From a virus (Duplodnaviria > Heunggongvirae > Uroviricota > Caudoviricetes), in the IMG/VR virus record IMGVR_UViG_3300037257_000073: a DNA stretch of 64,000 nt. One strand, written 5' to 3'. The first letter of the stretch is position 1. The number at the start of each line of letters is the position of its first letter. The position numbers were made by a program, and so were the translations under genes. Under the pieces are notes generated by a model that saw only the letters and a list, made by a program, of their open reading frames with translations, had not been told where the DNA came from and made no database searches. This document shows positions 7,924 to 64,000 of the stretch, piece by piece.

Positions 7924-7929
7924 TCTAAG

Positions 7930-8003
7930 CAGCTTGTACCGGGCTCAAACCGGCGACCTCCGCCGTGACAGGGCGGCATTCTAATCAACTGAACTAACAA
8001 GCT
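7930..8003 (-). tRNA. tRNA-Asp(GTC)
   Basis: hand-folded cloverleaf; anticodon loop CTGTCAC. Confidence 0.65.
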
Positions 8004-8070
8004 ATAGTGTGGATTCCTTTTAACCCACGAAGCCAACTTAAATAAATTAAGATTTACTAGTATTTTTAAG

Positions 8071-8162
8071 TATCTAAGGTGGGGATCGAACCCACGGTGT
8101 TCACCACAAAGGGTATAAGATTTTAAGTCTTATGCGTTTCAGCCAAACTTCGCCACTTAGAC
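8071..8162 (-). tRNA. tRNA-Leu(TAA), type II
   Basis: anticodon stem ATAAGA/TCTTAT with loop CTTAAAA; long variable arm. Confidence 0.55.
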
Positions 8163-8310
8163 ATTTTACTACAGTTTATATCTGTAACAAGAACATTTAT
8201 CACAAGAAGGCATAGAAGCACATCCTGCATGTGACATACCATCTGCATCAGCAAAACAAGTCTTTTGTTTCTTTGGTTTCTTAAACCATTTAATTAATTT
8301 TTTAATCATA

Positions 8311-8664
8311 TTTTTATTAAAAAGGTAATATTATCATTAATTCTTTTCTAATTTCATAACTTAGTTTTTCAAACCAACATATAAATTCGTAATTATCTGT
8401 ATTATTAGTTAATGCAAATAATTCATGATCATAACAACATGAACCAAAACCTCTAACATATCGACCACAAACTTCAATTTGTTGACTATATATTAACTGA
8501 TGTGGTTGATCTGGATCTTGATAACCATATACACAACAAAGTCCATCGGGTTCACTTTTGTAATAACATGTCCAAAATCACCATTCTGATTGTGGTACAT
8601 CATCAAATTCTTCTTCAAGTCCAGATTCAGGATCTATATCTAAATTTACTGTTACTAATCTCAT
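8311..8664 (-). CDS. Cys-rich hypothetical protein with one in-frame TGA, paralog of 8675-8953
   Basis: 117-codon frame opens only if TGA at 8578-8580 is sense; the TGA aligns with an aromatic position of the paralog; both end in LPF. Confidence 0.45.
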
Positions 8665-8674
8665 TATTCTATTT

Positions 8675-8953
8675 TTAAAAAGGTAAATTATTTCTTATTT
8701 CATCAGGTAAGTTATTCATCCATTCTATAAATTTAGGATGATCTAAATGTTCATCAATAATAAGTAGTCCAACAGTTGCTGAACATTGTCCAGGATAACC
8801 TCTTGTTCCATTTACTTTTATCATATCACTAAAACTAAATTTATCATAGCCAATATTACCACCATAAAGACAACAACTTGCATTAGCACATTCCATAAGA
8901 CAACCTGTAAAGAAATACCATTTATACTCTGAATCTTCACCGTATTCATTCAT
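8675..8953 (-). CDS. Cys-rich hypothetical protein (paralog)
   Basis: ORF. Confidence 0.45.
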   Translation of the reverse strand: MNEYGEDSEYKWYFFTGCLMECANASCCLYGGNIGYDKFSFSDMIKVNGTRGYPGQCSATVGLLIIDEHLDHPKFIEWMNNLPDEIRNNLPF

Positions 8954-8975
8954 TATTTTATAATTTATAATTTAG

Positions 8976-9046
8976 TTGACCAACCAGGACTCGAACCTGG
9001 GCGACATCCGTCAAAGGGATGTGTGCTACCATTACACCATCGGTCA
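8976..9046 (-). tRNA. tRNA-Gln(TTG)
   Basis: cloverleaf; loop CTTTGAC. Confidence 0.65.
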
Positions 9047-9055
9047 ATATAGAAG

Positions 9056-9142
9056 CGTACACGGCAGGATTCGAACCTGCGGTGGAATATTATTCACCAG
9101 GTTAACAGCCTGGACCTGTCGACCAACTAAGGCAACGTGTAC
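9056..9142 (-). tRNA. tRNA-Asn(GTT)-like with an atypical 16-nt variable arm
   Basis: perfect acceptor GTACACG/CGTGTAC; anticodon arm CCAGG-CTGTTAA-CCTGG. Confidence 0.5.
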
Positions 9143-9143
9143 A

Positions 9144-9317
9144 TTATTCTTCTGAATGTATTTCTCTGTGACAATTAGCACAGACCATAATACATTTATC
9201 TAATTCTTCTTTAACTTTTTCTCATGCTCTAGTATATCCTTTTGCTGATATTCCAAAATCTTTTTCATTTGGATCTAAATGTTGTTTCACCATGTGTTTT
9301 ACACACTCTCATTTCAT
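9144..9317 (-). CDS. HNH endonuclease-like small protein with two in-frame TGA
   Basis: C-terminal CANCHREIH motif; frame needs TGA as sense. Confidence 0.35.
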
Positions 9318-9334
9318 CCATTTTTACTAATTTT

Positions 9335-9360
9335 TACTTGTTTACTAACCACTGAGCTAC
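9335..9360 (-). other. tRNA 5' fragment (acceptor plus D-arm only)
   Basis: GGTTCGTAGCTCAGTGGTTAG matches a tRNA 5' half; no anticodon, T-arm or 3' acceptor follows. Confidence 0.4.
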
Positions 9361-9376
9361 GAACCTTTATACCATG

Positions 9377-9742
9377 TTAAAACCAATGTTCTGTATTGGT
9401 TTCATCAATTGTACCAACTATAGAGCGACGGATTTCTCCACCTCTACGAGAATGATACACAAAAACTTTTTTATCTCGAAAGATTTGTGCTAAATGACTA
9501 AAATTATCACAATTGAAAAAATTGTGTTGATTTCCTTGAGTATCATCTAAATAAAATGATTGTCTCCTCCAACCCATTTGTCGCATTGTTTCAGGTACAA
9601 TTTCAATTACTTCTGGAATAATTGGAATAACTTCTGTATAATTACGTGTTGCTTTCACATAATCTTTTACTTTAATAAGACATAATACTTCTGAATACAA
9701 TTCACGACCATCTGAATTTCTTTTAATTGCTTTGTAATACAT
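9377..9742 (-). CDS. hypothetical protein
   Basis: ORF. Confidence 0.4.
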   Translation of the reverse strand: MYYKAIKRNSDGRELYSEVLCLIKVKDYVKATRNYTEVIPIIPEVIEIVPETMRQMGWRRQSFYLDDTQGNQHNFFNCDNFSHLAQIFRDKKVFVYHSRRGGEIRRSIVGTIDETNTEHWF

Positions 9743-9765
9743 AATTTAAAATTTAATTGTTCTTG

Positions 9766-9839
9766 TGTGACACACGGGGATCGAACCCGCAACGACCGGC
9801 ACCACAAACCAGCGCTCTACCAATTGAGCTAATGTCACC
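9766..9839 (-). tRNA. tRNA-His(GTG)
   Basis: loop TTGTGGT; an extra 5' G(-1) is encoded. Confidence 0.6.
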
Positions 9840-9846
9840 ATGTAAG

Positions 9847-9920
9847 AGCAGTAAGTGGGGTTCAAACCCACGACCCCAGGCTTGGAAGGCGAGTGCTCTG
9901 ATCAACTGAGCTATTACTGC
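9847..9920 (-). tRNA. tRNA-Gly(TCC)-like
   Basis: perfect acceptor GCAGTAA/TTACTGC, loop CTTCCAA, but the anticodon stem has two mismatches. Confidence 0.45.
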
Positions 9921-9973
9921 ATGGTACGGGTAGGATCACTGTGCACGTGCCTACCGAGACTAGATCAGTCTTC

Positions 9974-10273
9974 TTACGAAGTTTCTCCAACACTTTTATC
10001 TTTAGGATTCGACGGTTTAGTCAAATTCTTTAATTCAATTACTTCTAAAGGTTCACCTGTTCCAGGAGCTTTAAAACTCTTTACAAGTTTGGCTTCTGTT
10101 ACTATAAAACATTTACTAGAATCCCAATCAAAACCAAAATTAGTTCGAAGAATAGGTTCTGATATACGACTACCCATAGAAGGATAGTCTAAAGGAATAA
10201 CAACTTCATCATCCCAATGTTGACTATTATAAGGTAATCCTCCTAAATACTCATATAATTCTCTTACTGTCAT
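9974..10273 (-). CDS. hypothetical protein
   Basis: ORF. Confidence 0.4.
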   Translation of the reverse strand: MTVRELYEYLGGLPYNSQHWDDEVVIPLDYPSMGSRISEPILRTNFGFDWDSSKCFIVTEAKLVKSFKAPGTGEPLEVIELKNLTKPSNPKDKSVGETS

Positions 10274-10536
10274 TATTCTTTGTATTTAATGTTCATTGCC
10301 TTAGCTACTTCTATGACTTTTTCAATTTTAGCTCTTATATCAGCATCTAGAGCGTCATATTCTTCTTGTGAAAGTTTAAGAGTTGTCATATGTTCTGATA
10401 ATATATTAACTGATTGACAATACAAACATATTGAAATATCACCAGGTCCAGCTTTAGTACCATCTGTACACGCTGTATTTGCATTTAATATAGCCCCACA
10501 ATTAGGACAAATATTATCACTTTGATTTTTATCCAT
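10273..10536 (-). CDS. zinc-ribbon hypothetical protein
   Basis: CPNC...CLYC. Confidence 0.4.
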   Translation of the reverse strand: MDKNQSDNICPNCGAILNANTACTDGTKAGPGDISICLYCQSVNILSEHMTTLKLSQEEYDALDADIRAKIEKVIEVAKAMNIKYKE

Positions 10537-10538
10537 AA

Positions 10539-10919
10539 TTATAAATTAAATTTATTTAATTGTCTTACTAGTTCATAATAGTGTCTTGAATTTTTATCAG
10601 GTCTATCATTAACAATTTCTCTTGCTGTTCTAGGTTTATCAGCTTTTGTAAACCTTGAACATTCCCAATCAATAATAGCTTCTTCATAATTACAATTCGT
10701 TTTATAAAATGTAATATGATGTCTATTAATCTTACGATGTATCATTTTAATTCGATGTGTTCCTATAAAAGGAATGAATAGATACATTAACACTTTATCC
10801 AAATCATGAAACTTATACTTATAATAACCTAATAACTTCTTTTCAAGTTTTAAAAAAGCTATATAATGTTTCAATGTATATGGAATATGTTTCCAACTTT
10901 TAATAATGTTTTTAATCAT
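10539..10919 (-). CDS. hypothetical protein
   Basis: ORF trimmed to an internal Met because the annotated N-terminus overlaps tRNA-Thr. Confidence 0.4.
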   Translation of the reverse strand: MIKNIIKSWKHIPYTLKHYIAFLKLEKKLLGYYKYKFHDLDKVLMYLFIPFIGTHRIKMIHRKINRHHITFYKTNCNYEEAIIDWECSRFTKADKPRTAREIVNDRPDKNSRHYYELVRQLNKFNL

Positions 10920-10936
10920 CTCTTTATTTTTAATAG

Positions 10937-11008
10937 AGCCCAAGGTCGGGGTCAAACCGACGACAAATGGTTTACAATACCATTGCTCTATCACTGAGCT
11001 ACTCGGGC
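10937..11008 (-). tRNA. tRNA-Thr(TGT)
   Basis: anticodon arm ATGGT-ATTGTAA-ACCAT. Confidence 0.65.
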
Positions 11009-11278
11009 GTGGTGGGAGGGCTCTTTTTTAAGTAGTGCTATCCCATGTTCTACTATCGCAATTTCGGTAATGCGACCCACCAGGACATCTACTCATCGAG
11101 CAGCGTCATTTATCCAGCCCATGTTGGAAGTTGACCAAATAATAATAATATTAAAAATGTTACAAAAACAACTCCTAATGCAGCTGTTATTCTCATTTCA
11201 TTTTGTTCAGCCCATTCAGTTGCATGTCGTGGTGTTGCAAAGAACGTCCACTTTAGTTTTTTATACAGAGTCATAATT

Positions 11279-11476
11279 TTAATTTAAAATGTAAGCAATA
11301 ATTCCAAATATAGCTAATGCTAATGTTAATATTGATGTAAATCTAAGAAATACTGCAATATTATACGTTATTTTATCCTTCTCTTCTTTAACAGTAGAAA
11401 GATCTGCTAAACCTGTAATAAGTAACAATGTTCCAGGTAATGTAAGAATTGAAAGTACTAATAATAATTTATCCAT
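11279..11476 (-). CDS. small hydrophobic protein
   Basis: 65 aa, two TM-like segments. Confidence 0.3.
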   Translation of the reverse strand: MDKLLLVLSILTLPGTLLLITGLADLSTVKEEKDKITYNIAVFLRFTSILTLALAIFGIIAYILN

Positions 11477-11494
11477 TTTATTTTGTTTAGTTTG

Positions 11495-11567
11495 TCACGA
11501 TGAAGAGATTTGAACTCCTGACCCGTCCTGCATGAAAGGACTACTCTACCAACTGAGCTACATCGTG
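11495..11567 (-). tRNA. tRNA-Met(CAT) elongator type, or possibly tRNA-Ile2
   Basis: acceptor CACGATG/CATCGTG; loop TTCATGC; C1-G72 is paired. Confidence 0.6.
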
Positions 11568-11643
11568 TGAAAAGTATTATTGGTGAACGCAAGTGCCACT
11601 CCTTATTTTTATCTTGCTTATTGTCTAAAGACTAATACTTTAG

Positions 11644-11727
11644 TGGGATGTGGTGGAGTCAAACCACCCGAGTCCGAAGACACCTAAGTTACAGTCAGGC
11701 CCGCTATAAGCTACGGTATAACATCCC
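11644..11727 (-). tRNA. tRNA-Tyr(GTA), type II
   Basis: loop CTGTAAC; variable-arm hairpin GTC-TTCG-GAC. Confidence 0.6.
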
Positions 11728-11732
11728 ATTTT

Positions 11733-12677
11733 TCATACATTATGTACAATTATTTGTAAATCAGCAAATTGTGTGATTAACTTCTTATGACCATTAATAA
11801 AATCTCTAGCTGACATAACCTTTTTATTAGGTAATTGTAATGAAACAATCTGAAGACTACTTTTATTACAATTTATAAAAAGTTTATTATTTTCAACACA
11901 AATTAATTCTCCATCTAAGAAATCACCTTTAACACGTCCAGTATACATACATGCATCTTTAATTTTAACTTCAGTATTGTTATCTGGTAAATAAAAGAAT
12001 ACTCCGTGATTCGATTCATATGCCTTCATTTTTGCATATACATCATCAACATTTTTATTAAAATCAAGTAAACAATCATCTTTAGTTATTTTACAACAAT
12101 ATGTAGCTTCACTTTCTATCTGTGGTCTTAAAATAACTCCACGAGTATATTTAGTGATTGTTAGAAGAATATTTTCAGCAGCTAAGTTTGATAATTGATC
12201 AAGAAGCATAATATATCCCATTCCTACAGGTAGATACATTTTACGTTGAGTAATAATACTTCCAGCATCTACAGCAGCATTCATTTTAATAAATGTAACT
12301 CCTGTTTCAGAATCTCTATTCAAAATAGCAGCTTGAATACAAGAAGCACCTCTATACTTCGGTAATAATGAACCATGAATATTAATTGCACCATATTTAG
12401 CAGAATCAAGTATTTTCATTTTAATTATTTGTCCATAAGATGCAACAACAATTAAATCAAAATCAGTACTAATTATACGATGTTCAAGTTCATTAATATC
12501 ATTAGCAGTATATACTAAACAACCTAAAGCTTTACCAGCAATATAAATAGGTGTATTTTGTACTACTCTACCGAAACGTCGTGGTGGTGTTGTTATAACT
12601 GTAACTTGATAAATTTCATGTAATTTTTTTAATGCTGGAACTCCAAAAATTCCATTACCAATAAATAATATCTTCAT
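11733..12677 (-). CDS. fmt: methionyl-tRNA formyltransferase
   Basis: N-terminal MKILFIGNG..FGVP and the formyltransferase signature NIHGSLLPKYRGASCIQ; 314 aa with a C-terminal domain; the ORF ends on TGA. Confidence 0.8.
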   Translation of the reverse strand: MKILFIGNGIFGVPALKKLHEIYQVTVITTPPRRFGRVVQNTPIYIAGKALGCLVYTANDINELEHRIISTDFDLIVVASYGQIIKMKILDSAKYGAINIHGSLLPKYRGASCIQAAILNRDSETGVTFIKMNAAVDAGSIITQRKMYLPVGMGYIMLLDQLSNLAAENILLTITKYTRGVILRPQIESEATYCCKITKDDCLLDFNKNVDDVYAKMKAYESNHGVFFYLPDNNTEVKIKDACMYTGRVKGDFLDGELICVENNKLFINCNKSSLQIVSLQLPNKKVMSARDFINGHKKLITQFADLQIIVHNV

Positions 12678-12696
12678 CTGTTTATGTTTTAATTTG

Positions 12697-12782
12697 CGGA
12701 AATGTAGGATTCCAACTCCTATTCGCCTAAACGAACGCTTTGCTTAGCAGGCAAGCCTTACTTCTCGTAAGTTACTATTTCC
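12697..12782 (-). tRNA. tRNA-Ser(GCT)-like, type II
   Basis: loop CTGCTAA; long variable arm; atypical D-arm. Confidence 0.5.
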
Positions 12783-12795
12783 AGTTTAATTATTG

Positions 12796-12885
12796 TGGAA
12801 GAAGTGGGATTCCGACCCACGCACCGCTTTTACACGATCTAACGATTTTCAAGACCGTCCTCTTAAAGCACTTGAGTACTCTTCC
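12796..12885 (-). tRNA. tRNA-Ser(TGA), type II
   Basis: anticodon arm ACGGT-CTTGAAA-ATCGT; 3-bp D-stem; long variable arm. Confidence 0.6.
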
Positions 12886-12892
12886 ATTTAAT

Positions 12893-13093
12893 TTATTGAT
12901 TTGATTTTAAATAATTCTCATAAATAAGTTTAGATTCTTCTGTAAGAAAATTCTTATTAATCGGTTTGTGATTTAGATTAAAAGGAAATAATTTACCACA
13001 TTCGGTACACCAACTAATTCCCCAATTATTAATTCTAGGAACACATCCTAATTTTACACATTTAGCTGCCATCTTAATTGTTATTTTCGTCAA
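12893..13093 (-). CDS. zinc-ribbon hypothetical protein
   Basis: CVKLGC...CTEC. Confidence 0.35.
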   Translation of the reverse strand: MTKITIKMAAKCVKLGCVPRINNWGISWCTECGKLFPFNLNHKPINKNFLTEESKLIYENYLKSNQ

Positions 13094-13508
13094 ATATTCC
13101 TTTTAAATACCAATAATCTTCACATTTTTTAGAATATGATTTACATTCATTTTCAATATGTCTCCAATTCTTTCTTACAAAAGAAGTTTCTTCATATTTA
13201 AAATAAGTTTTACCATCTATATAACTCTCGGGTTGTAAAAATCTAAATCCTTCAACTTCTATTTCTTTACGTTCAAAATTATATTTAGGTTTATCAGGAA
13301 AAATCGGAGGAGTTATAATCTGATTCCAACTTTTAGCTGAATGTTCTTTACGTCGACCATATTGAAAAGTGTAAGGATTATAATAATTCTTACTATTCCA
13401 TCGTTTGTCATATCTTTCACATACTGAAAGTTGAATCATTGCAGTTTTATGAACATTAGGGCCATTTAATTTAACTCCTATTCTTTTTAAATAATCTAAA
13501 CATTTCAT
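13074..13508 (-). CDS. hypothetical protein
   Basis: ORF. Confidence 0.4.
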   Translation of the reverse strand: MKCLDYLKRIGVKLNGPNVHKTAMIQLSVCERYDKRWNSKNYYNPYTFQYGRRKEHSAKSWNQIITPPIFPDKPKYNFERKEIEVEGFRFLQPESYIDGKTYFKYEETSFVRKNWRHIENECKSYSKKCEDYWYLKGIFDENNN

Positions 13509-13528
13509 TTTATCTATTTTTATATTTG

Positions 13529-13611
13529 TACTCGAGGTCGGACTCGAACCGACACATCTTTCGACATATGCTCCTAAGGCATACGCGTATTAACCATTTC
13601 GCCACTCAAGC
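13529..13611 (-). tRNA. tRNA-Leu(TAG), type II
   Basis: anticodon arm TATGC-CTTAGGA-GCATA. Confidence 0.6.
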
Positions 13612-13616
13612 ATTTG

Positions 13617-13697
13617 CACATCAGGTAGGATTTGAACCCACGAACCTTTCGGATTAGTTTTGGAGACTAACTACTTTAACCGCTTGTATACTGACAT
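13617..13697 (-). tRNA. tRNA-Trp(CCA)
   Basis: anticodon arm TTAGT-CTCCAAA-ACTAA. Confidence 0.55.
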
Positions 13698-13703
13698 ATT
13701 TGC

Positions 13704-13782
13704 TCCCCCAAGGAGGACTCGAACCCACATGTCTCTCGACATATTCCGAAGAATACGCGTCTGCCAATTACGCCATTGGGGA
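13704..13782 (-). other. aberrant tRNA-like element without a decodable anticodon loop
   Basis: good acceptor, D-arm and T-arm, but the anticodon region is two tetraloop hairpins (CGTATTC-TTCG-GAATATG and ATGTC-GAGA-GACAT). Confidence 0.4.
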
Positions 13783-13788
13783 ATTTAG

Positions 13789-13877
13789 TGGGGGCGGAGG
13801 GCTTCGAACCCCCATGTCTCACGACCGCTATGGTCTAACCTATATTTAGCTGCGGCTACCAATTTCGCCACACCCCC
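13789..13877 (-). other. aberrant type-II tRNA-like element (anticodon loop ATATAGG)
   Basis: acceptor GGGGGTG/CGCCCCC, Leu-like D-arm, 4-bp anticodon stem CTAA/TTAG, ~20-nt variable arm. Confidence 0.4.
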
Positions 13878-13893
13878 GATTGTTTTTTTTTTG

Positions 13894-13966
13894 TGATCTG
13901 ACTGGGATTTGAACCCAGAACCCCCGCCTTAAAAGGGCGATGCTCTACCAGTTGAGCTATCAGATC
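13894..13966 (-). tRNA. tRNA-Lys(TTT)
   Basis: perfect acceptor GATCTGA/TCAGATC; loop CTTTTAA. Confidence 0.7.
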
Positions 13967-13975
13967 TTGTAAATA

Positions 13976-14040
13976 ACCACTTGGTTGTAGCGACACTACC
14001 AAGTGGTTTGTTGCCGAAACAACAACGGTCCTAAACCGTA
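13976..14040 (-). ncRNA. three consecutive hairpins in the tRNA-Phe/tRNA-Lys spacer
   Basis: ACCACTTGGT/ACCAAGTGGT (10 bp), TTGTTG/CAACAA (6 bp), ACGGT/ACCGT (5 bp). Confidence 0.35.
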
Positions 14041-14042
14041 AG

Positions 14043-14115
14043 TGGACTCTGTTGGTTTTGATCCAACCTCTCATGCTCTTCAGGCATACGCTTTCACCAG
14101 ATTAGCTTAGAGTCC
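14043..14115 (-). tRNA. tRNA-Phe(GAA)
   Basis: acceptor GGACTCT/AGAGTCC; loop CTGAAGA. Confidence 0.65.
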
Positions 14116-14120
14116 TTAAA

Positions 14121-14900
14121 TTATATTTTATCCCATTCATCATCAGACAAACTATTTATTTCTTTCTTTGAAGAAGGTATATTAAAATGTTTACACCATT
14201 TTCTAATAGCATTATCTGATCTATTGTATAATTTACCAATATTAATAAATGTTTCTGTGCGAACTAAAGTTTTTAAATATTCACGAGTTATACCAAGTTC
14301 ATCGTAAAAATCATTAGCTATTCGTTTAGCAGAACAACTTAAACATAAACCACTTACAGAAGAACTTGTTATAGTATTACCACAAGAATTACAATATAAT
14401 GCATCTATAACTTTATCTTTAACATTTTTACCTTTATAATTATCAGTAAAAGCATGACAGTTTGGACATAATAATTTAAGATTATTTAATTCATTATTAG
14501 TTTTAATACCATCTATGTGGTGTGTTTCTAATGGAATAGGTTCTCCCATTCATTTAGTATTATCACAACATTCACATTTATGTTCTTTTAGATTATTTTT
14601 TAATAATTTATCTCTTAACTTACTTGTTTGTGTATATGCTGAATCTTTACAAAAGATTGTATCTAAAGTGTACACATTCTTAGTTTCATTTGAAGAATTT
14701 CTTTTAAAATGAATTGTGCTAATTTGATGTTTTTTTATCTTAGTTTGAATTGTTTCATAATTACCAGCAGTTAAAGGCAACCCATAATATCTACACACAT
14801 CTGCAAAAGAATAACTTTCTTTTACAATTTTTTCTAAATTTTCTTTTGAATATTTGTTTTCCATAAATTGAACTATTATATTAATAGTACAAAGATACAA
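14121..14900 (-). CDS. HNH homing endonuclease with one in-frame TGA at 14550-14552
   Basis: two adjacent same-frame ORFs; CxxC sits upstream of the TGA and HHIDG..N..LCPNCH downstream, so the HNH motif spans the TGA. Confidence 0.6.
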
Positions 14901-14970
14901 AAAATTTTCGAAAGTGCAAAATATATTTAGTTAAATATTGTTAATAGCAGAAAGAAACCACCGAAGTGGT

Positions 14971-15507
14971 TTATTCAAATAATCCTGAAGGTGTATTATG
15001 AAATTTATTATATAAAACATCTAATGTATAGGATTCATTATCTTTATTAACAAATAATAATTCTTCATCAATTATTGTCGGAGTGTAATTCTCCTTTAAT
15101 ACTTGTAAAAATGATTTAGTTCTTGTTACTGTGCCCCCAAATCTTGGATCATCTCCATAATTAATGATATAAGTTCCTGACGATGGTGTCATACTAGCAA
15201 GAACATCATTATGAACATATTCTGATCTACCATCATGAGTTATTGTTTGACTAAATTCTTCAAGTAAACCTCTAATCATATCATTACTGATATTAAATTC
15301 ATTAGCTCCTGATATTTTATATTTATCCTCATCATTCATAGATTGACTACTCATAGTAATTGTTTGAACTTTTCCAAACAATCTACGCATGCTTTCAACA
15401 ACTCCAAAAAGAGGTCTTGGACCTCGTCCATTTAATGCATCTTCAAACCATTCTAAAGACTGCATTAATACTTTATCACCTACTTTATATCGCTCTGTAC
15501 CTCTCAT
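14971..15507 (-). CDS. tandem paralog family A, member 1
   Basis: N-terminal YKVGDKVLMQSLEWF; C-terminal NYTP..ID..YTLDVLYNKF. Confidence 0.5.
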   Translation of the reverse strand: MRGTERYKVGDKVLMQSLEWFEDALNGRGPRPLFGVVESMRRLFGKVQTITMSSQSMNDEDKYKISGANEFNISNDMIRGLLEEFSQTITHDGRSEYVHNDVLASMTPSSGTYIINYGDDPRFGGTVTRTKSFLQVLKENYTPTIIDEELLFVNKDNESYTLDVLYNKFHNTPSGLFE

Positions 15508-15862
15508 ATATTTCTTTTAAACTATATGCATCATTATTATCATTTATAAAATACAATCCACCTTCATCAATAAGTGGTGTATAATTCTTTTCTACATATT
15601 CAGGAAAAGATGAAGCTATTCCTTCAATCATATCATTACTAAAATTCCAATGACGTGGATCATCTACTAAGTGATATAAAGGTATATATGCATAACCTGC
15701 TTCATTATTTGAAATTACTTGTTCTTTACCAAAAAACTGACGCATATCATAAATTAATCCACCTTCAACAGCTACATGATTTTCCATCATTTCATCAAAC
15801 CAAGCTAATGATTTTAGTCTAACAACATCACCAATTTTATACTTCTTTAAAGAACTCATCAA
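15485..15862 (-). CDS. tandem paralog family A, member 2
   Basis: YKIGDVVRLKSLAWF ... YSLKEIYERY. Confidence 0.5.
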   Translation of the reverse strand: MMSSLKKYKIGDVVRLKSLAWFDEMMENHVAVEGGLIYDMRQFFGKEQVISNNEAGYAYIPLYHLVDDPRHWNFSNDMIEGIASSFPEYVEKNYTPLIDEGGLYFINDNNDAYSLKEIYERYRAI

Positions 15863-16295
15863 ATATTTCTTTTAAAGTAAATGAATTATTATCTTTATCA
15901 GTAAATGTTAAAGTTTCACCATCAAGAAATGGAGTATAATTCTTTTCAAGATGTTCAGGAAATTTATTTGGAGTAATAACATCCCATGAATATTGATCAG
16001 GATCAATTATATTTTCATGTCTATGTATTAATTCAGAAGTTTTTATATTATCAATCATTTGATCAGTATACGTATATTCATTATCACTACCACCACTGCA
16101 ACCTGCTAAAACATATCCACAATAATTTGTATCAACATGAGTAATAACTTGAATTGTTCCAAAATAAGGTCTCATATCACTAGCTAAACCTAATCTAACA
16201 TCACCTCTATCGTCATGTACATCAAACCAATCTTTAGATTTCAAATGTACACATTGTCCTACTTTATACTTAACTGTTGGTAGTGAATCTCTCAT
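15837..16295 (-). CDS. tandem paralog family A, member 3
   Basis: YKVGQCVHLKSKDWF ... FTLKEIFDEF. Confidence 0.5.
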   Translation of the reverse strand: MRDSLPTVKYKVGQCVHLKSKDWFDVHDDRGDVRLGLASDMRPYFGTIQVITHVDTNYCGYVLAGCSGGSDNEYTYTDQMIDNIKTSELIHRHENIIDPDQYSWDVITPNKFPEHLEKNYTPFLDGETLTFTDKDNNSFTLKEIFDEFFKEV

Positions 16296-16839
16296 ATAAC
16301 TGTGTTAAAGTAAATGAATTATTTTCATTATCTGTATAAGTTACAACTCCATCATAAGCAAATGGAACAAACTTCTCAACATATTGTATAAATGCTTTAA
16401 CGTGAATTGAAAGACTGTTTGAAAAACCTAATAATCCACTAAAATCAGTAGTACCTCTCATTCTACCTCTCAATTCTTGTAATGAAAGTTGTTCATACAT
16501 ACTTAAAGCACTTGACATACTTGAAGTACCTGAAGTTAAACTAGATCCTATGGTATTATACATACTTACTAATCTATCATATCCATTAGTTGTAATTGGC
16601 ATATCATAATACTTATCAACCATATCTATTGAGAAATACCAACCTTTAGAATCACTTTCAATATTAAATAATTCAACACCTCTTAATTGAGATCCTCCAA
16701 TTTTTACAGATTTTATAATATGTTCTTTACCAAAATATTGTTCCATATCATTAGTCAATATTGGCAAGAAATCTGCTTTTTTCTCATCATACCATTCTTT
16801 AGGTTTTAATAAAACCTTCATTCCTTGTTTTAAAATCAT
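16270..16839 (-). CDS. tandem paralog family A, member 4
   Basis: MKVLLKPKEWY ... FTLTQLYERF. Confidence 0.5.
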   Translation of the reverse strand: MILKQGMKVLLKPKEWYDEKKADFLPILTNDMEQYFGKEHIIKSVKIGGSQLRGVELFNIESDSKGWYFSIDMVDKYYDMPITTNGYDRLVSMYNTIGSSLTSGTSSMSSALSMYEQLSLQELRGRMRGTTDFSGLLGFSNSLSIHVKAFIQYVEKFVPFAYDGVVTYTDNENNSFTLTQLYERFTTNS

Positions 16840-16892
16840 TTTCCATCTTCATTTAACTTGGGTAATCATCCCAATTTTACCTAATTTATTTG

Positions 16893-16964
16893 TAAGAGCA
16901 GAGAGAATTGAACTCCCGACATCTTCCATGTAAGGGAAGCGTTCCACCACTGAACTATGCTCTC
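16893..16964 (-). tRNA. tRNA-Val(TAC)
   Basis: anticodon arm CTTCC-CTTACAT-GGAAG. Confidence 0.65.
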
Positions 16965-17022
16965 GGTTGTATTGTAGACAGTACTATCTTGTAGAACCAA
17001 TACTAATTTTATATCTACTTTG

Positions 17023-17096
17023 TGTTCACAACAGGACTTGAACCTGTGACCCCCAACTTATCAGGCTGGTGCTCTAACCAACTGAGCTACGCAAAC
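17023..17096 (-). tRNA. tRNA-Ile(GAT)
   Basis: loop CTGATAA. Confidence 0.6.
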
Positions 17097-17188
17097 AGTT
17101 AAACAGTAACTATTCTTAGACTTTCGACATCCTTAATAGCTTTCCAATGATAACTAATTGCTGTTTACCAATTAGCTTCTTCGAAGAG

Positions 17189-17262
17189 TGGAATCTGTGG
17201 GTTTCGAACCCACCACCTATTGCTTGCAAAGCAATCGCTCTAGCCAAATGAGCTAAGACCCC
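17189..17262 (-). tRNA. tRNA-Ala(TGC)
   Basis: anticodon arm ATTGC-TTTGCAA-GCAAT; G3:U70 wobble present. Confidence 0.65.
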
Positions 17263-17427
17263 GATTTAAAGTTTTTTGTGCCACGGTGATTGTATGCCAA
17301 ACTGGTAAAAACTTAATAATACCCATGCGCCAAATACGATGCGCGAGACAAGTATGCATAAACTATCAAACTTTCGTTATTAAGTTCCTAGGCCTTCTCA
17401 ATCTACGTTCAGTTGTTCCTACTGGTT

Positions 17428-17643
17428 TTATTTAATTATTTCAAGTTCTTCTGGAGAATAACCATATCTTAATTTAGAAGGTAACCATCTAACATTCCAT
17501 TCATCACCTTCACCATCAGGATATACTAAATCTTCAACTATACCTATACACTTTCCAAATTCATCAACATGATCTTTACAATCATTTGCAATTAATCCTC
17601 TTTTAAAGGATTTAGTCATTTTAACTATATCTCCTGATTTCAT
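17428..17643 (-). CDS. hypothetical protein
   Basis: ORF trimmed to avoid tRNA-Cys. Confidence 0.3.
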   Translation of the reverse strand: MKSGDIVKMTKSFKRGLIANDCKDHVDEFGKCIGIVEDLVYPDGEGDEWNVRWLPSKLRYGYSPEELEIIK

Positions 17644-17659
17644 AATTTTATTTATTTTG

Positions 17660-17731
17660 AGCCCATACCAAGATTCGAACTTGGGCGTGCGATTTTTGCA
17701 GAATCGAATGTTAACCACTTCACCATACGGG
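17660..17731 (-). tRNA. tRNA-Cys(GCA)
   Basis: anticodon arm CGATT-CTGCAAA-AATCG. Confidence 0.65.
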
Positions 17732-17732
17732 C

Positions 17733-18212
17733 TTATCTATTATTAATAATATTACTAATGGTTCCTTTACTACTAATATTATATTTTTCCATAATTTCTT
17801 TATAAGTATGCCCTAAATTTCGGTATGCTTTAATTTCTAAAACTAATTCATCAGAATATTTTTTATTAGCATTAGATGCAATTCTAATTCTTTCTTCTTT
17901 AGGTTTATCCATCATATTATCACTATATGATCCAATTTCAATATTATCCCAAGAATTATTTAATCCGTTACCATCTAAATGTCTAACTACTATATCTTCG
18001 TTAAAAATAATTTCTCCAAATTTTTGATATGCTTGTAATCTATGTACTTTAACTGGAATATGTTTTTCATTTAATCTAATATTAAATTTTTTATAATTTT
18101 TATTATAAATAGTTCCTGTTAAAATTTTTTCTTTAGGATTTAAAATATCACCATTTATAGTTATTTTATATCCTTTTTCAATTGCTAATAATTCATTTTT
18201 ACTTCTTTCCAT
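17733..18212 (-). CDS. HNH homing endonuclease with a C-terminal HTH
   Basis: VRHLDGNGLNNSWDNIEIGS plus C-terminal ...YKEIMEKYNISSKGTISNI; start moved to an internal Met to avoid the tRNA-like element. Confidence 0.6.
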   Translation of the reverse strand: MERSKNELLAIEKGYKITINGDILNPKEKILTGTIYNKNYKKFNIRLNEKHIPVKVHRLQAYQKFGEIIFNEDIVVRHLDGNGLNNSWDNIEIGSYSDNMMDKPKEERIRIASNANKKYSDELVLEIKAYRNLGHTYKEIMEKYNISSKGTISNIINNR

Positions 18213-18216
18213 ATTG

Positions 18217-18293
18217 TACCTACTCCTGGGATTGAACCAGGCTGTCACCAAATAACCTTTCAACAAGATATAAGCTTGAGGGTATAAGTAGGC
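18217..18293 (-). other. degenerate tRNA-like element
   Basis: perfect T-arm CCTGG-TTCAATC-CCAGG and acceptor GCCTACT/AGTAGGT, but no canonical D or anticodon arm. Confidence 0.35.
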
Positions 18294-19265
18294 ATAAAAA
18301 ATCTCTTTATTCACTTTAAGCAGAGTGGAATAATTATATTGACTTAGGTCATAACGAAGGCTTTTCTGCGAACACTAACCATATCATAACTACATTTACC
18401 AAAACATTCAACCACTGCTATGGTTTATAACCTACGTACTCAACTTTCGTCCTTACCCCTTATTGGGTTGGGTGTCTCCCCCTGGTTACCGTTTTGCTTC
18501 AATTAAAGAGATTTTATTTGTTCAACTTAGAGTAGTCACGGCTACCTCTGATCTCTAAGTCTAATACTAACAGTGGCAAAATGTAGCTCGACCCTAGTTA
18601 GTTTTGTTAATTGGTATGGGCAATAACTTTATAAGTTAAGACTACAACCCCATCTTTGATGGTTTATTCTATCGTAGCTAATAATAAATAAACCTAGTTG
18701 TACTCCAAGCTGGACTTGAACCAGCGACCCTCGGTTTAGAAAACCGATGCTCTATCCACTGAGCTACTGGAGCATTTTAAAAATGAGTAACGGGAGGGAC
18801 AATTACACGCATGTTATCCACGGGACTACACCTACATCTTTTCGTTAGGGATATCTGGACTTAATTCCTCATTCTAAGTCAGCATTGGGTTCCCCTCTTA
18901 CCTGACTCACCGACCATTCTCGGATGTTACTCATTTAATTTTTAAAAATATTGATGTGCTATTACGCCAAAGGGATTTCAGTCCTTACCAGTTACGGGGT
19001 GACCTCCAACTTACCTTACCACATTAAATTCCAACTTGAATTGGTTTATCAACGTAGTCTCGTCCCACTCTTTAGATGATTGCTGCTTCCAAGCCAACAT
19101 TTCAATATTTTATATTTTAAAAAAGATATACTAATTGCGATTGTATATTATAGAAACATCATCGACGATAATAAATTACCATTCTAGATATAACATTCAC
19201 CAATACTTTAAATACGGAGGAATTCCAGAGTCACTTCCCTCATATACAATTAGAGCCCTCTGGAC
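18294..19265 (-). ncRNA. large ORF-free, GC-enriched structured region, candidate GOLLD/ROOL-like RNA, with tRNA-Arg embedded
   Basis: ~950 nt with no ORF over 60 aa on either strand in a densely coding genome; many local inverted repeats; embedded tRNA. Confidence 0.35.
18701..18773 (-). tRNA. tRNA-Arg(TCT)
   Basis: anticodon arm TCGGT-TTTCTAA-ACCGA. Confidence 0.65.
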
Positions 19266-19481
19266 CTAGACTGTTTCTTCTTTTAATTTTTTATTCCATT
19301 TTAAAAATCCTCTAATATTTAAAACTGTAAATGCTAAATACATTATAACTATTGAAATCATATTCCAGAATAATATTATTCCAAGAATACTTCCAATTGC
19401 TCCAAGTATGAAGCCAATTATTCTCTTATTACTTATCAAATAATAAGCGTATAAGTTTAAAATCATTAAAATCCAATCCAT
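19266..19481 (-). CDS. small membrane protein
   Basis: two TM segments. Confidence 0.35.
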   Translation of the reverse strand: MDWILMILNLYAYYLISNKRIIGFILGAIGSILGIILFWNMISIVIMYLAFTVLNIRGFLKWNKKLKEETV

Positions 19482-19684
19482 TATCTATTTGTTTAAGTTT
19501 TAAAAAGGGTTGGGTATATAGTAGAACTTTAATCAACTTATACGTTTATGAATTACACATAATTGCTATCTACCACCCTTTATTTTAACATCCCTCTCTG
19601 CCGCAATCAAGTTTCGGCTGTCTTGTGCTTTGTTTGAACCATTATCAATTGCCGATTTATGGTCACAGAGTTGAGGATATTTAG

Positions 19685-19757
19685 TTGCGAAGGAGGGAAT
19701 TGAACCCCCGACCTCAAGGTTATGAGCCTTGCGAGCTACCACTGCTACCACTTCGCG
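19685..19757 (-). tRNA. initiator-type tRNA-fMet(CAT)
   Basis: C1:A72 mismatch; loop CTCATAA; architecture close to E. coli tRNA-fMet (CGCGAAG..CTCATAACC..TTCAATT..CTTCGCA-A). Confidence 0.55.
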
Positions 19758-19767
19758 ATATATTTTG

Positions 19768-19840
19768 TATAGATGGTGAGACTCGAACTCACGACCCCTT
19801 GCTCCCAAAGCAAGAACGCTACCAACTGCGCCACATCTAT
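19768..19840 (-). tRNA. tRNA-Pro(TGG)
   Basis: perfect acceptor ATAGATG/CATCTAT; loop TTTGGGA. Confidence 0.65.
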
Positions 19841-19843
19841 ATT

Positions 19844-20062
19844 TTAATTATTGAATATTTCACAAATTAATTCTTCAGAAATCCATTCTTCAATTACATC
19901 TTTACTATCATTTTCAGTAATAAAAAATATTTCATGATCTTCTATAGCATCTTTTAAATATCTTGAAACTTTATTAAGATCTGATATGCTTGAAGACTTA
20001 AAAATAAGTCTTGGTGTTTCACGATTACTTATTCTAAGTAAATAATATTTTTTTTCTATCAT
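19844..20062 (-). CDS. hypothetical protein
   Basis: ORF. Confidence 0.35.
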   Translation of the reverse strand: MIEKKYYLLRISNRETPRLIFKSSSISDLNKVSRYLKDAIEDHEIFFITENDSKDVIEEWISEELICEIFNN

Positions 20063-20083
20063 AATTAATTTATCAATATTTTG

Positions 20084-20155
20084 TATTCGGACGGGGAATC
20101 GAACCCCGCTTGCTGGGATGAAAACCCAGATTACTAGCCGCTATAAGACCCGAAC
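20084..20155 (-). tRNA. tRNA-Glu(TTC)
   Basis: anticodon arm CTGGG-TTTTCAT-CCCAG. Confidence 0.6.
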
Positions 20156-26302: not shown

Positions 26303-26670
26303 TATGGATTTAAAAATTGTTTTAGCAATTCATCATTTAATATTGTGTCTGAATTATTTGCATAAAATTCCGCAAAATCAAACATTTGTTGTTTAGTAAA
26401 TTTAGGAATATTAATAAAATATAATTCTTTAAATTGTTCAAAAGTAATTTCTTCTCCTCTAAGTTGATCAAATATACCTTGTACAATATCTGATCCAGAT
26501 CTCGCCTCAAGATTATTTACTACAATAGAAATATCATTACTATCTGAATGTTCTTTAATGTTAGTTGTGTGTGATCCTACCCATGAACAATTATTTTTAA
26601 ATATTATTTCTTGAACAAATTTAAATTGATCCCTAGTAAGATGATGTATTTTAAAATTTTCGATTATCAT
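26302..26670 (-). CDS. tandem paralog family B, member 1
   Basis: MIIENFKIHHL..FKFVQEIIF ... FKELY. Confidence 0.5.
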   Translation of the reverse strand: MIIENFKIHHLTRDQFKFVQEIIFKNNCSWVGSHTTNIKEHSDSNDISIVVNNLEARSGSDIVQGIFDQLRGEEITFEQFKELYFINIPKFTKQQMFDFAEFYANNSDTILNDELLKQFLNP

Positions 26671-27038
26671 AATTTTAAGAAGTCAGTTAATACATCATCT
26701 GGAGATGATGCGCCAACTATATTGTTAGTGTAATATTCAGCAAATGCAAGGATTTTCTCTCTAGATATACGTAAAGTATTAGCATATTTTTCTTTAAATT
26801 GATCATATGTTAATTCTTCTCCTTCAAGACCATCAAATGTACTTTGGGTAACTACTACACCGGATCTTAACATACCTTTAGATGTCATACATAAAGTAAT
26901 AGTATTACTAGGACTAAACATTCTTAAATCTTTATCTAAGCTGCTTCCCCATCCACCACCATCGCGAAATACCATATTTTGAACAATTTTAGATTGTTCA
27001 TTATCAAGATGATATATTTTAAAAGGTTTTATTTCCAT
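26667..27038 (-). CDS. tandem paralog family B, member 2
   Basis: MEIKPFKIYHL..SKIVQNMVF. Confidence 0.5.
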   Translation of the reverse strand: MEIKPFKIYHLDNEQSKIVQNMVFRDGGGWGSSLDKDLRMFSPSNTITLCMTSKGMLRSGVVVTQSTFDGLEGEELTYDQFKEKYANTLRISREKILAFAEYYTNNIVGASSPDDVLTDFLKL

Positions 27039-28157: not shown

Positions 28158-28172
28158 TTAATTTCAATTTAA

Positions 28173-28579
<407 letters not shown>

Positions 28580-37749: not shown

Positions 37750-37879
37750 TTCTTTTTATCATTTTGTGTTTAACCTACACGAATTGTGTAACGCACTAAG
37801 CTTAATAACTTTATACTCCCTTAGTGGAGTTAAAACGAGGATGCTATAGAATCGTGATCCCATAGCATCCCTATTCTAT

Positions 37880-42701: not shown

Positions 42702-42787
42702 TATGGATAAAAGGATTTGAACCTCCGACCTCCGGCTAATGTTTTTGTCTTGCTGCCGACGCTCTAACCAGGCTGAGCTATATCCAA
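42702..42787 (-). other. aberrant tRNA-like element with an 18-nt anticodon loop
   Basis: normal D-arm GCTC/GAGC and T-arm GGAGG-TTCAAAT-CCTTT; stem TCGGC/GCCGG encloses AGCAAGACAAAAACATTA. Confidence 0.4.
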
Positions 42788-50362: not shown

Positions 50363-50773
50363 TTATTTATATCGAGGTAAATCTTGTTTAATTTTACTAT
50401 ATTCATTTCCTCCAATCATTAATCCATTTTTGTAAGCATGAATTTTATTTTCAGAATCAGTACACCATTCAAGATTTACTAATGAATTATTTAATTTATT
50501 TCCATCTATATGATTTACTTGTAAATTTTCAAAGATTGGTCTAAATGTTAACATTACTATTCTATGAACATGTAATGTTTTTATTCCATTTCTATTTTCA
50601 GCAGTAAATCTTAAATATCCAAATTTATTAGGAGATAATTTTAATATTTTCCCTTTTAATTTTCTTCCAATTTTAGATATTCTATTTAAACTTCTTATTC
50701 TTCCTAAATTAGAAACTTGATATATTTCTTCATATTCAGGAATGTCTTTTCAGATTTCTTCTATTTCTTGCAT
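50363..50773 (-). CDS. HNH homing endonuclease (NUMOD4-type N-terminus) with an in-frame TGA at 50750-50752
   Basis: MQEIEEI-TGA-KDIPEYEEIYQVSNLGRIRS; the TGA lies where the Trp of the conserved WKDIPGYEGLYQVSNLGRVRS motif sits; HNH VNHIDGNKLNNSLVNLEW. Confidence 0.6.
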
Positions 50774-56971: not shown

Positions 56972-57046
56972 GTTTTTGAGTTTGATATGTTTAAACATAT
57001 TTCGTCCAGTCTCATCAGAAACTATTTTATACTCTACTGGTTGAGT
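56972..57046. promoter_or_regulatory. conserved intergenic repeat R2
   Basis: TTTTGAGTTTG + palindrome ATATGTTTAAACATAT + TTTCGTCCAG + hairpin CCAGT..ACTGG. Confidence 0.45.
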
Positions 57047-58036
57047 TAATAAAAAAGAGAGTACACACTATATGTCCAAATGCGACGATGTGTACTCCCT
57101 TAGTGTTTGTTATCAAAATTAATATGATAACCATTGTTTACTTCGCGGTACATCACCGATAAAATCGGTGAATCTAACCGGGAAGCATTCTTTCGTAATA
57201 AAGAGCTTCACCCTTTTGCTCCCATAGCCAGTTTCAGGACGATATTACGTTGGCTTGTTTTTGACACCAGCAATTAGCACGGCATCGGTTTTAGTATACC
57301 TATCTTTTATTAATTTGTCTTCAAGGATTGACAGAATGGATGCTATTTGTACATATAGCCGTTATACCTTACACTCGGAAGTTCCACACTTTCATCGGAG
57401 GATTGCGCACAGGTTTTCATTATACTTATTTGCAGTTAGTATTATACTGTTTAAAGGCATCAAACCACCATACTGAATCTCTTCTTGATTAGTTATTCAG
57501 ATATGCTTCTTATATAAGAGATTATATTATTTATAACGTTATTATATAGAGAATATACATATCCAACCGTTTATCTGATGAAAGTTGCTTGATGCTAAGA
57601 GTTTAAAGTATATTTACAATAATTGCAGCTAATAAAAATCCAGCTGCGGCAGCATATAAATGCGACATAATATGATTTTCTTTATCAAAACATATTAATC
57701 CCATAAATATATCAAATGCTAAACATAGACTGAGTATAATTACCATTAGCTTATGTATTTAAACATTAATATTCCACAATCAATAAGTAAAGAAAGCATT
57801 ACATATCCCATTCGTGATTCTTCTTGCCATTTGATAATATTGAATTGTAGTCCAATAAATGAACCTAACAAGTAAAAGATAATCCATGGTGCAATGTATA
57901 ATAGAGTTTTTTCAGTTTTAGTCATGTTTTTTGATTTTACATTCTATTGATATAAACATTGCACACAATTCTACAAATAAATAGAAGATTAAGAACGGTG
58001 ATAAACAAATTACTATTGCTTGAGTTTTAGTTAACA

Positions 58037-59454: not shown

Positions 59455-59540
59455 TTTTTGAGTTTGACGGGAGTGATGAGCTCCCCGTTTCGTCCTAGTC
59501 TCTTCAGAAACTGATGTTATACTCTCCTAGGCTGAGTCAT
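59455..59540. promoter_or_regulatory. conserved intergenic repeat R3
   Basis: TTTTGAGTTTG + hairpin ACGGGAG..CTCCCCGT + TTTCGTCCTAG + hairpin CCTAG..CTAGG. Confidence 0.45.
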
Positions 59541-62460: not shown

Positions 62461-62530
62461 AATTGTATATCAGTGACTTAACATTTTTTAACTATGTGTA
62501 TAGTATTTTTGTCACACAAATTTCTTATCT

Positions 62531-63636: not shown

Positions 63637-64000
63637 ATGGAAGTAATACAACACTTCGTTCGTAATGACGACCATGATGAATTATACATTATGGAAATTG
63701 AAGGGAAAGCTTATGCTAGGATGTATTGATTCCATGATGATCCAAAATCAGTTTACTTAAACTCTTTAAGTGTTGAGAATAACGAAAGAGAACAAGGACT
63801 TGGAACTAAAATGCAGGAACTAAGAGAGAAAATAGGAATAGAACTCGGAGCTACACAATCCTTTTTATGAGTTAAACGGGATAGTTGAATGTATGAATGA
63901 TATACCCGAAGAGGTTATAACGATTTCTCAGATTACACAGATGATGATAGTATGATATGAATGATTAAAATGTTAAATGATAACAATACTAAATACAAAG
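63637..64000 (+). CDS. GNAT-family N-acetyltransferase with five in-frame TGA (partial at window end)
   Basis: frame open from ATG 63637 to the window end if TGA at 63727, 63868, 63886, 63898 and 63958 code Trp; GNAT motifs REQGLGTK and EWYTRRGYNDF; all Trp are TGA, none TGG. Confidence 0.5.

Follow-up and report, generated by a model that had tools for sequence, protein, structure and literature searches.

The 64,000-nucleotide stretch analyzed here (hereafter the window; IMG/VR record IMGVR_UViG_3300037257_000073) belongs to a phage of ~175 kb and 30% G+C that is found in many wetland (fen and peat) metagenomes. The window, likewise 30% G+C, has nearly all of its genes on the minus strand, among them three genes with HNH endonuclease motifs that are interrupted by in-frame TGA codons (HNH genes 1 to 3). 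These TGAs are real, and we propose, with a probability of about 0.85 and on the evidence of sequence comparison, that they are read as tryptophan (Trp) by a phage-encoded tRNA with the anticodon UCA, termed tRNA(UCA), in a genome that is recoded block by block. The features that bear on this proposal are collected in Table 1.

HNH gene 1 lies directly upstream of tRNA-Phe and reads ...KCECCDNTK-TGA-MGEPIPLETHHIDG...LLCPNCH..., such that the TGA separates the CxxC half from the HHIDG..N..CPNCH half of a single HNH domain. This placement, already given in a preliminary description of the sequence, was confirmed on the minus strand; the span up to position 14900 assigned to the gene there is too long, given the position of the ATG start. 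The Pfam scores (18.7 for HNH_3 and 17.6 for HNH) are both under the cut-off, and the motif CxxC...HH..N..CxxCH is invariant in 118 homologs; in their source records, several of these bear the name HNH endonuclease. The closest relatives, with identities of 78%, 75% and 46%, all have TGG at the TGA codon, and the two closest occupy the same tRNA-Ile/tRNA-Phe locus in related phages. On either side of the TGA, the ratio of nonsynonymous to synonymous substitution rates (dN/dS) is 0.18-0.37, as it is between the two intact relatives, which indicates purifying selection.

HNH gene 2 is free-standing, flanked by two unrelated open reading frames (ORFs), and reads MQEIEEI-TGA-KDIPEYEEIYQVSNLGRIRS. 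It matches NUMOD4 with 53.6 bits (cut-off 23.4) and HNH_3 with 42 bits (cut-off 24.8) and contains the catalytic H..N..H/N motif; by these features it is predicted to be an I-HmuI-like HNH homing endonuclease. The alignment with I-HmuI (PDB 1U3E) begins one residue past the TGA, which adjoins Trp3 of I-HmuI. The closest relatives (78% and 75% identical) have TGG at this codon and lie in different gene contexts. I-HmuI is encoded by an intron and uses the standard code, whereas gene 2 stands alone, has TGA at a Trp codon, and is shorter (136 residues), without the C-terminal DNA-binding extension. A group I intron context was considered for the HNH genes and rejected: Rfam detected no such intron in the window, and the ORFs on either side of gene 2 are unrelated.

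HNH gene 3, which reads MK-TGA-ECVKHMVKQHLDPNEKDFGISAKGYTRA-TGA-EKVKEELDKCIMVCANCHREIHSEE, is less complete. Compared to homologs of 73-99 residues, it is shortened at the N-terminus, where the first CxxC is missing, and its HH is replaced by QH; Pfam gave no HNH match, and a complete ββα-Me/zinc-finger core of two Cys pairs plus HH is absent from it. It is probably a truncated remnant rather than a full HNH gene, possibly in decay regardless of how its TGAs are read. The preliminary description had presented all three genes as intact and as also using TGG. None of them contains a frameshift, TAA or TAG; intactness holds for genes 1 and 2 and fails for the truncated gene 3; likewise, genes 1 and 2 have two and one TGG codons, respectively, and gene 3 has none, the nearby TGG lying upstream of its ATG. 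A fourth HNH_3 gene of the same region, recognized by the Pfam call of the Joint Genome Institute (JGI) in contig L001 and by a local hidden Markov model match, serves as a contrast case that is free of TGA.

Table 1. Coordinates of the features discussed (window positions unless a contig is named)
Feature	Position	Strand	Remarks
HNH gene 1	14121..14864	-	247 codons; start ATG at 14864; one in-frame TGA at 14550-14552
HNH gene 2	50363..50773	-	NUMOD4 + HNH_3 (I-HmuI-like, predicted); 136 codons; TGA at 50750-50752 (codon 8)
HNH gene 3	9144..9317	-	57 codons; TGA at codon 3 (9309-9311) and codon 32 (9222-9224); abuts tRNA-Asn; probable remnant
Fourth early-arm HNH_3 gene	17733..18212	-	no TGA, 1 TGG
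tRNA(UCA)	L005 13328-13401 = L006 8076-8149 = L031 960-1033	+	late arm; ARAGORN, Rfam
GNAT acetyltransferase gene	63637..64000, continues 8 nt past window end	+	5 TGA (63727, 63868, 63886, 63898, 63958), 0 TGG
Methionyl-tRNA formyltransferase gene fmt	11733..12677	-	ends in TGA (11733-11735), 6 nt before tRNA-Tyr
tRNA-Tyr	11643-11727		
ORF of unknown function, tRNA island	8317..8664	-	115 codons; one in-frame TGA (8578-8580), 3 TGG
Early-arm genes ending in TGA-TAA	6165-6458; 26664-27038; a third ~7.5 kb before window start	-	
Late-arm gene ending in TGA-TAA	72921-73196 (window-equivalent)	+	
GIY-YIG genes, late arm	L031 9627-10223 and 12011-12844		past window end
HNH paralog of gene 1	L006 8167-8733		directly after tRNA(UCA); TGG only
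tRNA array	7929..20155	-	24 genes for all 20 amino acids, among which lie HNH genes 1 and 3 and the HNH_3 gene without TGA
Tandem tRNA-like genes	13528-13877	-	four, long variable arm, 4 nt spacing
tRNA-like gene	42702-42787	-	Rfam tRNA, 47.5 bits
tmRNA gene	28171-28579	-	full length; Rfam RF00023, 107 bits
RAGATH-1 hammerhead (two) and Pistol (one) ribozymes	56979-57047, 59461-59538, 37769-37830	-	intergenic; over Rfam gathering scores
Tandem paralogous ORFs	14971-16850	-	four, 124-193 aa, between tRNA-Val and HNH gene 1

Near-identical contigs of the window phage occur in many fen and peat metagenomes as well as in ENA and Logan assemblies, one of them of 174,982 bp; a JGI contig of 174,953 bp was translated with code 4, as seen from the Trp at the TGA position of its gene 1 product (P0003). 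The four HNH-gene TGAs have the same bases in the independent, though essentially clonal, JGI, ENA and Logan assemblies and are thus not sequencing errors. About 103 kb around the window was assembled from near-identical contigs and IMG/VR fragments, on which the gene and codon counts for the two arms of the genome rest. A megablast of 8 kb against GenBank phages returned tRNA-sized matches only, and an exact 46-mer search of IMG/VR returned a single 4-kb fragment.

To locate the TGAs relative to conserved residues, homologs (hundreds) were found with the readthrough products, in which X stood at each TGA. Trp occupies the aligned column in 117 of 118 homologs for gene 1, in 118 of 120 for gene 2, where the TGA falls on the NUMOD4 Trp, and in 112 of 120 for the second TGA of gene 3, the two TGAs of which were found as previously described. 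The earlier claim that the TGAs sit at conserved Trp positions therefore stands for three of the four, at columns that are 93-99% Trp, and fails for the first TGA of gene 3. A TGG to TGA change is the easiest one-step path to TGA, so this result alone is weaker than it appears: given the codon content of the three genes, the chance that at least three of four random nonsense mutations hit Trp codons is 0.002-0.14, according to the transition bias assumed. In other phages, the close relatives of genes 1 and 2 have TGG at these codons, so the TGAs are recent TGG to TGA changes in this lineage rather than conserved features of the families.

The early/middle arm of the genome runs on the minus strand over almost the whole window and past its start, and holds the tRNA array, fmt, NAMPT and transfer-messenger RNA (tmRNA), in addition to DNA polymerase, helicases and primase, which are located past the window start. 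Its long genes are rich in TGG and free of TGA, for example with 15 TGG in a gene of 722 codons, and in-frame TGAs cluster at gene ends; in the ORFs of the replication genes they occur only among the first twelve or so codons, which probably precede the true starts. Among the 133 genes of this arm, the HNH genes contain 4 TGA and 4 TGG codons, compared to 1 TGA and 303 TGG in all others (Fisher p = 9e-7), and the stop codons are TAA in 102, TAG in 20 and TGA in 10 genes. The arm thus follows the standard code, TGA terminating ~8% of its genes and TGG making up >99% of the Trp codons outside the HNH genes. The only non-HNH gene of this arm with an internal TGA is the ORF at 8317-8664, a single gene of 115 residues in both the JGI and ENA contigs, for which neither Pfam nor PHROG gave a match. 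A comparison of ORFs under code 11 and code 4, limited to the window, yielded almost no gain on the coding strand, and recoding across the whole window was rejected.

The TGA at the end of fmt illustrates its use as a stop. It falls at residue 315, the alignment with Fmt structures in the PDB spans residues 1-298 of 314, and the PDB chains have 314-318 residues, which corresponds to the natural length. Readthrough would enter tRNA-Tyr, and the JGI code-4 call indeed lengthens fmt by 31 codons into that tRNA gene. A TAA immediately follows the TGA in three of the ten TGA-ending early-arm genes (chance ~0.03 for three of ten) and in a single gene of the late arm; such double ends may be back-up stops against suppressor readthrough.

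The late arm begins near window position 62,500, is oriented opposite to the early arm, and holds GNAT, tRNA(UCA), PhoH, GroEL/ES, GIY-YIG endonucleases, the large terminase (TerL) and the portal. From 62.5 to 75 kb, its 20 genes contain 12 in-ORF TGA and 32 TGG codons; from 75 to 83.6 kb, nine genes including terminase and portal contain 22 TGA and 6 TGG, such that the use of TGA for Trp rises toward the packaging genes. The stops of the late arm are TAA in 27 genes and TAG in one, with no unambiguous TGA. Recoding is block-wise, not genome-wide, and in the early arm it is practically confined to the HNH genes. A recount of stops and Trp codons under translation tables 11, 4 and 25 thus divides by arm, the packaging end of the late arm writing Trp mostly as TGA (22:6) and the early arm as TGG (303:1 outside the HNH genes); code 25 (Gly) does not fit the aligned residues. 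Code-4-like decoding, which had been offered as one of two explanations, does not agree with the ten early-arm genes that end in TGA and the >99% share of TGG there, whereas the other, a suppressor tRNA reading TGA as Trp, is supported by tRNA(UCA), GNAT, terminase and portal.

The GNAT gene, which straddles the window end, was compared to homologs found with a 46-residue stop-free segment as query. At its five TGA columns, Trp is present in 19/22, 9/22, 18/20, 19/20 and 16/18 homologs and is the commonest residue at every one. TerL (PHROG 6681, E = 5e-69) has 10 TGA and 4 TGG codons, and the portal (PHROG 6547, E = 6e-50) has 2 TGA and 1 TGG; both were recognized by PHROGs and neither by Pfam. 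Aligned with the standard-code relative MT835470, TerL has its TGAs at positions occupied by Trp, Phe or Tyr in eight of nine cases. By this sequence evidence, the genome would make neither terminase nor portal if UGA were not decoded as sense, and it encodes a matching tRNA. Since terminase and portal need TGA as sense, readthrough of the HNH TGAs is to be expected as long as the decoding machinery is at work.

Related phages in IMG/VR, with GroEL 64-75% identical, differ in this respect: terminase and portal contain TGAs in L033 and L036, some of the TerL positions being shared with the window phage, and L035 is nearly free of them. Over short evolutionary distances, the degree of recoding therefore shifts in this lineage. 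Two GIY-YIG genes were also found past the window end on the late arm, one of which has 4 TGA and no TGG and lies directly upstream of the terminase gene, overlapping it slightly.

The tRNA scan (ARAGORN-type) and Rfam analysis of the 64-kb window found no tRNA(UCA). The check for an anticodon UCA nevertheless turned out positive ~2.65 kb past the end of the window, in contigs that match this end with 99.99-100% identity, and the tRNA is kept in the related phages L036 and L038. It is a canonical cloverleaf of 74 nt that matches the general tRNA model of Rfam over its full length with 62.9 bits, not the tRNA-Sec model. It has a 7-bp acceptor stem, a 7/5 cloverleaf and a short variable loop, with an A1-U72 pair and the discriminator G73, which we take to be bacterial Trp identity elements. 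A paralog of HNH gene 1 follows directly after it.

That TGA has another meaning, either selenocysteine or glycine (code 25), or that gene 1 is split by termination and re-initiation at TGA-ATG, appears very remote. ARAGORN labels tRNA(UCA) 'SeC', from the anticodon alone; its size, acceptor stem, variable loop and match to the general model do not agree with tRNA-Sec, and the TGA columns hold Trp or aromatic residues, not Cys or Gly. An ATG does follow the TGA of gene 1 directly, but this Met is ancestral, for Trp-Met is found here in the relatives with TGG as well, and no ATG follows the TGAs of genes 2 and 3.

Another possibility is a host of the code-4 type (Mollicutes-like or of another lineage with UGA as Trp), in which TGA would never be a stop during infection and tRNA(UCA) would be one of a full tRNA set. 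The JGI pipeline used code 4 for the contigs, the sole canonical-shaped Trp-like tRNA found has the anticodon UCA, and the TAA directly after three of ten TGA 'stops' fits as well. The distribution of early-arm TGAs, at the ends of ten genes and otherwise near-absent among 303 Trp codons, is by contrast the signature of a working stop, and readthrough of fmt would run into the tRNA-Tyr gene. Moreover, the nearest relatives by TerL are crAss-like phages of standard-code Bacteroidota (Bacteroides, Flavobacterium, Cellulophaga), and the hosts of comparable recoded phages in the literature use the standard code (10.1101/2021.08.26.457843). We therefore regard a code-4 host as improbable; the TerL relatives together with the TGA stops of the early arm suggest a host with the standard code.

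A further explanation is that the three HNH genes are pseudogenes, killed by TGG to TGA nonsense mutations and now decaying, to which the suppressor tRNA would be irrelevant. Such a transition is the most accessible route to a nonsense codon (hence the chance of 0.002-0.14 for the Trp columns), the relatives have TGG, gene 3 is truncated, and early-arm genes use TGA as a stop. From the window alone, where TGA is mostly a stop and no tRNA(UCA) is found, this explanation could not be dismissed; the rest of the genome settles the question, as the same genome must read TGA as sense for terminase and portal. The 247 and 136 codons of genes 1 and 2, in AT-rich sequence, contain no frameshift, TAA or TAG, and the dN/dS of gene 1 equals that between intact relatives. 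Decay of all three genes is accordingly unlikely, if a shade less so than a code-4 host, and the previous statement that they are not three separate pseudogenes holds for genes 1 and 2, with gene 3 in doubt.

Under the favored interpretation, the phage tRNA(UCA) would decode UGA as Trp, the HNH genes of the window would be mostly intact genes in which TGG codons were turned into TGA in this lineage, and the full-length HNH protein would be made only when the suppressor tRNA is present. If tRNA(UCA) acts late, as we infer, the TGAs would then postpone or throttle the endonuclease relative to the surrounding early genes. Whether this serves the phage divides the interpretation into two versions, to which we give roughly equal weight. 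In the first, put forward tentatively, free-standing early-arm HNH genes convergently swapped TGG for TGA, three of them independently, to form a translational timer that uses the code switch of the phage. If so, the nuclease would appear only once the late-arm tRNA(UCA) accumulates, which would shield early replication from self-cleavage.

In the second version, a quite plausible one although short of even odds, decoding by tRNA(UCA) is the same and the enrichment of TGA in HNH genes is tolerated drift, not adaptation: G to A pressure in a genome of 30% G+C would act on dispensable selfish genes, whereas the same TGG to TGA changes would be purged from the surrounding genes, which are needed before the suppressor is present. 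Several observations agree with drift. The orthologs in other phages have TGG, so the TGAs are young; the HNH ratio of 4:4 is intermediate, with the purged early genes at 1:303 and the late genes, presumably close to mutational equilibrium, at 22:6; the truncation of gene 3 fits weak selection; and TGA is missing from one HNH_3 gene of the early arm as well as from the HNH gene that neighbors tRNA(UCA) on the late arm. On the other hand, gene 1 is under purifying selection on both sides of its TGA, and three independent HNH genes gained TGA when ~129 neighbors did not, as selection for delayed expression also predicts (10.1101/2021.08.26.457843).

Several points weigh against reading the HNH TGAs as Trp codons served by tRNA(UCA). 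The first TGA of gene 3 falls on an N/D/S column in a diverged N-terminus, and the HNH TGAs are not conserved in the orthologs of other phages. In the late arm, the single TGA of PhoH falls on a variable column (Y/Q/D/D), so that PhoH fails as an independent test for Trp, and the GNAT gene with its five TGAs lies upstream of tRNA(UCA) on the same arm. The sampled contigs of the window phage are essentially one clone (99.7-100% identical); there is therefore no evolutionary persistence of the TGAs to argue from, and conservation across strains is uninformative. BLAST of tRNA(UCA) in phage records gave weak tRNA-Arg neighbors only (80% over 57 nt, E ~1e-4), and BLAST against E. coli genomes gave nothing. 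With such weak neighbors, the amino acid carried is presumably Trp by virtue of the aligned residues and the A1-U72/G73 elements. Finally, the analysis covers ~103 kb of the ~175-kb phage genome and only part of its structural genes.

The arrangement resembles known systems of opal recoding. Block-wise opal or amber recoding with suppressor tRNAs, biased toward late genes, has been described in crAss-like phages, especially the Zeta group of 145-192 kb (PMC7886860, PMC12386605), and TGA recoding also occurs in Agate, Jade and other clades (10.1101/2021.08.26.457843). The Zeta phage Lera has ~26 tRNAs and homing endonucleases in a metabolism block, an opposing structural block, and a tRNA-Sup(TCA) whose isotype prediction is ambiguous between Trp and Arg (PMC12386605). 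The window phage is alike in its genome size class (145-192 kb), its clustered tRNAs, its two opposing blocks, the TGA-for-Trp use in TerL and structural genes together with a UCA tRNA, and in having several homing endonuclease ORFs that vary between close relatives; the weak tRNA-Arg matches of its tRNA(UCA) echo the ambiguity in Lera. It differs in its fen and peat source, as opposed to the gut, in the presence of tmRNA, GroEL/ES, fmt and NAMPT, and in its TerL, for which tblastn gave an identity of only 27-29% with classified Crassvirales and of 44% with an unclassified gut phage. By its architecture the phage may be Zeta-like; a major capsid protein was not seen in the ~103 kb.

In Agate/Jade-type phages, a homing endonuclease in an early gene favors TGA over TGG, for which delayed production was proposed by the authors (10.1101/2021.08.26.457843). 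The early location and TGA preference of the endonucleases are shared by the window phage, as is the variation in the degree of recoding among close relatives (L035 compared to L033 and L036). The endonucleases here are, by contrast, free-standing HNH genes in or near the tRNA array, not ORFs of group I introns, and the habitat is environmental, not the gut. A 'code-change operon' with tryptophanyl-tRNA synthetase or release factor RF1 was not seen in the ~103 kb. In Mollicutes and mitochondria, code 4 is similar in that UGA is read as Trp by a tRNA(UCA), but there the reassignment is genome-wide with release factor RF2 absent, whereas here TGA still ends some genes of one arm and it is the virus that provides the reassignment. 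What is new is an environmental case of the already described block-wise opal recoding, with a TerL distant from the classified Crassvirales. Such recoding, mainly described from gut phages, is thereby extended to an abundant wetland lineage distantly related to crAss-like phages, and the contrast of 4:4 with 1:303 makes the published idea that recoding delays a homing endonuclease directly testable against drift.

The recoding also has consequences for annotation. Under table 11, terminase, portal, PhoH, GNAT and several endonuclease genes fragment, and the public annotations disagree accordingly: the code-11 calls in ENA split PhoH, GNAT and others, whereas the code-4 calls of JGI join them. 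Neither code 11 nor code 4 alone annotates this genome correctly, and a dedicated dual-code annotator for block-wise recoding has been published (10.1101/2022.06.29.495998).

Further features were found in the window. Of the four tandem tRNA-like genes, one is a normal Leu(TAG), another a 'Trp(CCA)' whose variable arm is long, a third a Leu(TAG) paralog with a 6-nt anticodon loop, and a fourth an 'ATA' member with a mismatched stem. No canonical-shaped tRNA-Trp(CCA) was found in the window, and the only normal Trp-like tRNA of the phage is the UCA one outside. More speculatively, the phage may also manipulate UGG/UGA decoding in an undescribed way, its early arm being without a normal tRNA-Trp(CCA) and having only the aberrant long-arm 'CCA' tRNA, which stands among degenerate type-II tRNAs in tandem. 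The tRNA-like gene at 42702-42787 was missed by ARAGORN in the default mode; with the intron option it is called Leu(CAA), with an insertion of 11 nt in the anticodon loop. The tmRNA encodes the tag peptide GNKTISFARTAFMAAA, and three ribozymes lie between genes elsewhere in the early arm. The four tandem ORFs next to HNH gene 1 have in common the motif K.G..V.LKS..WFD at the N-terminus and NYTP...F...D.....TL.E.Y..F at the C-terminus; in the related phages, tRNA-Ile is directly followed by the HNH gene.

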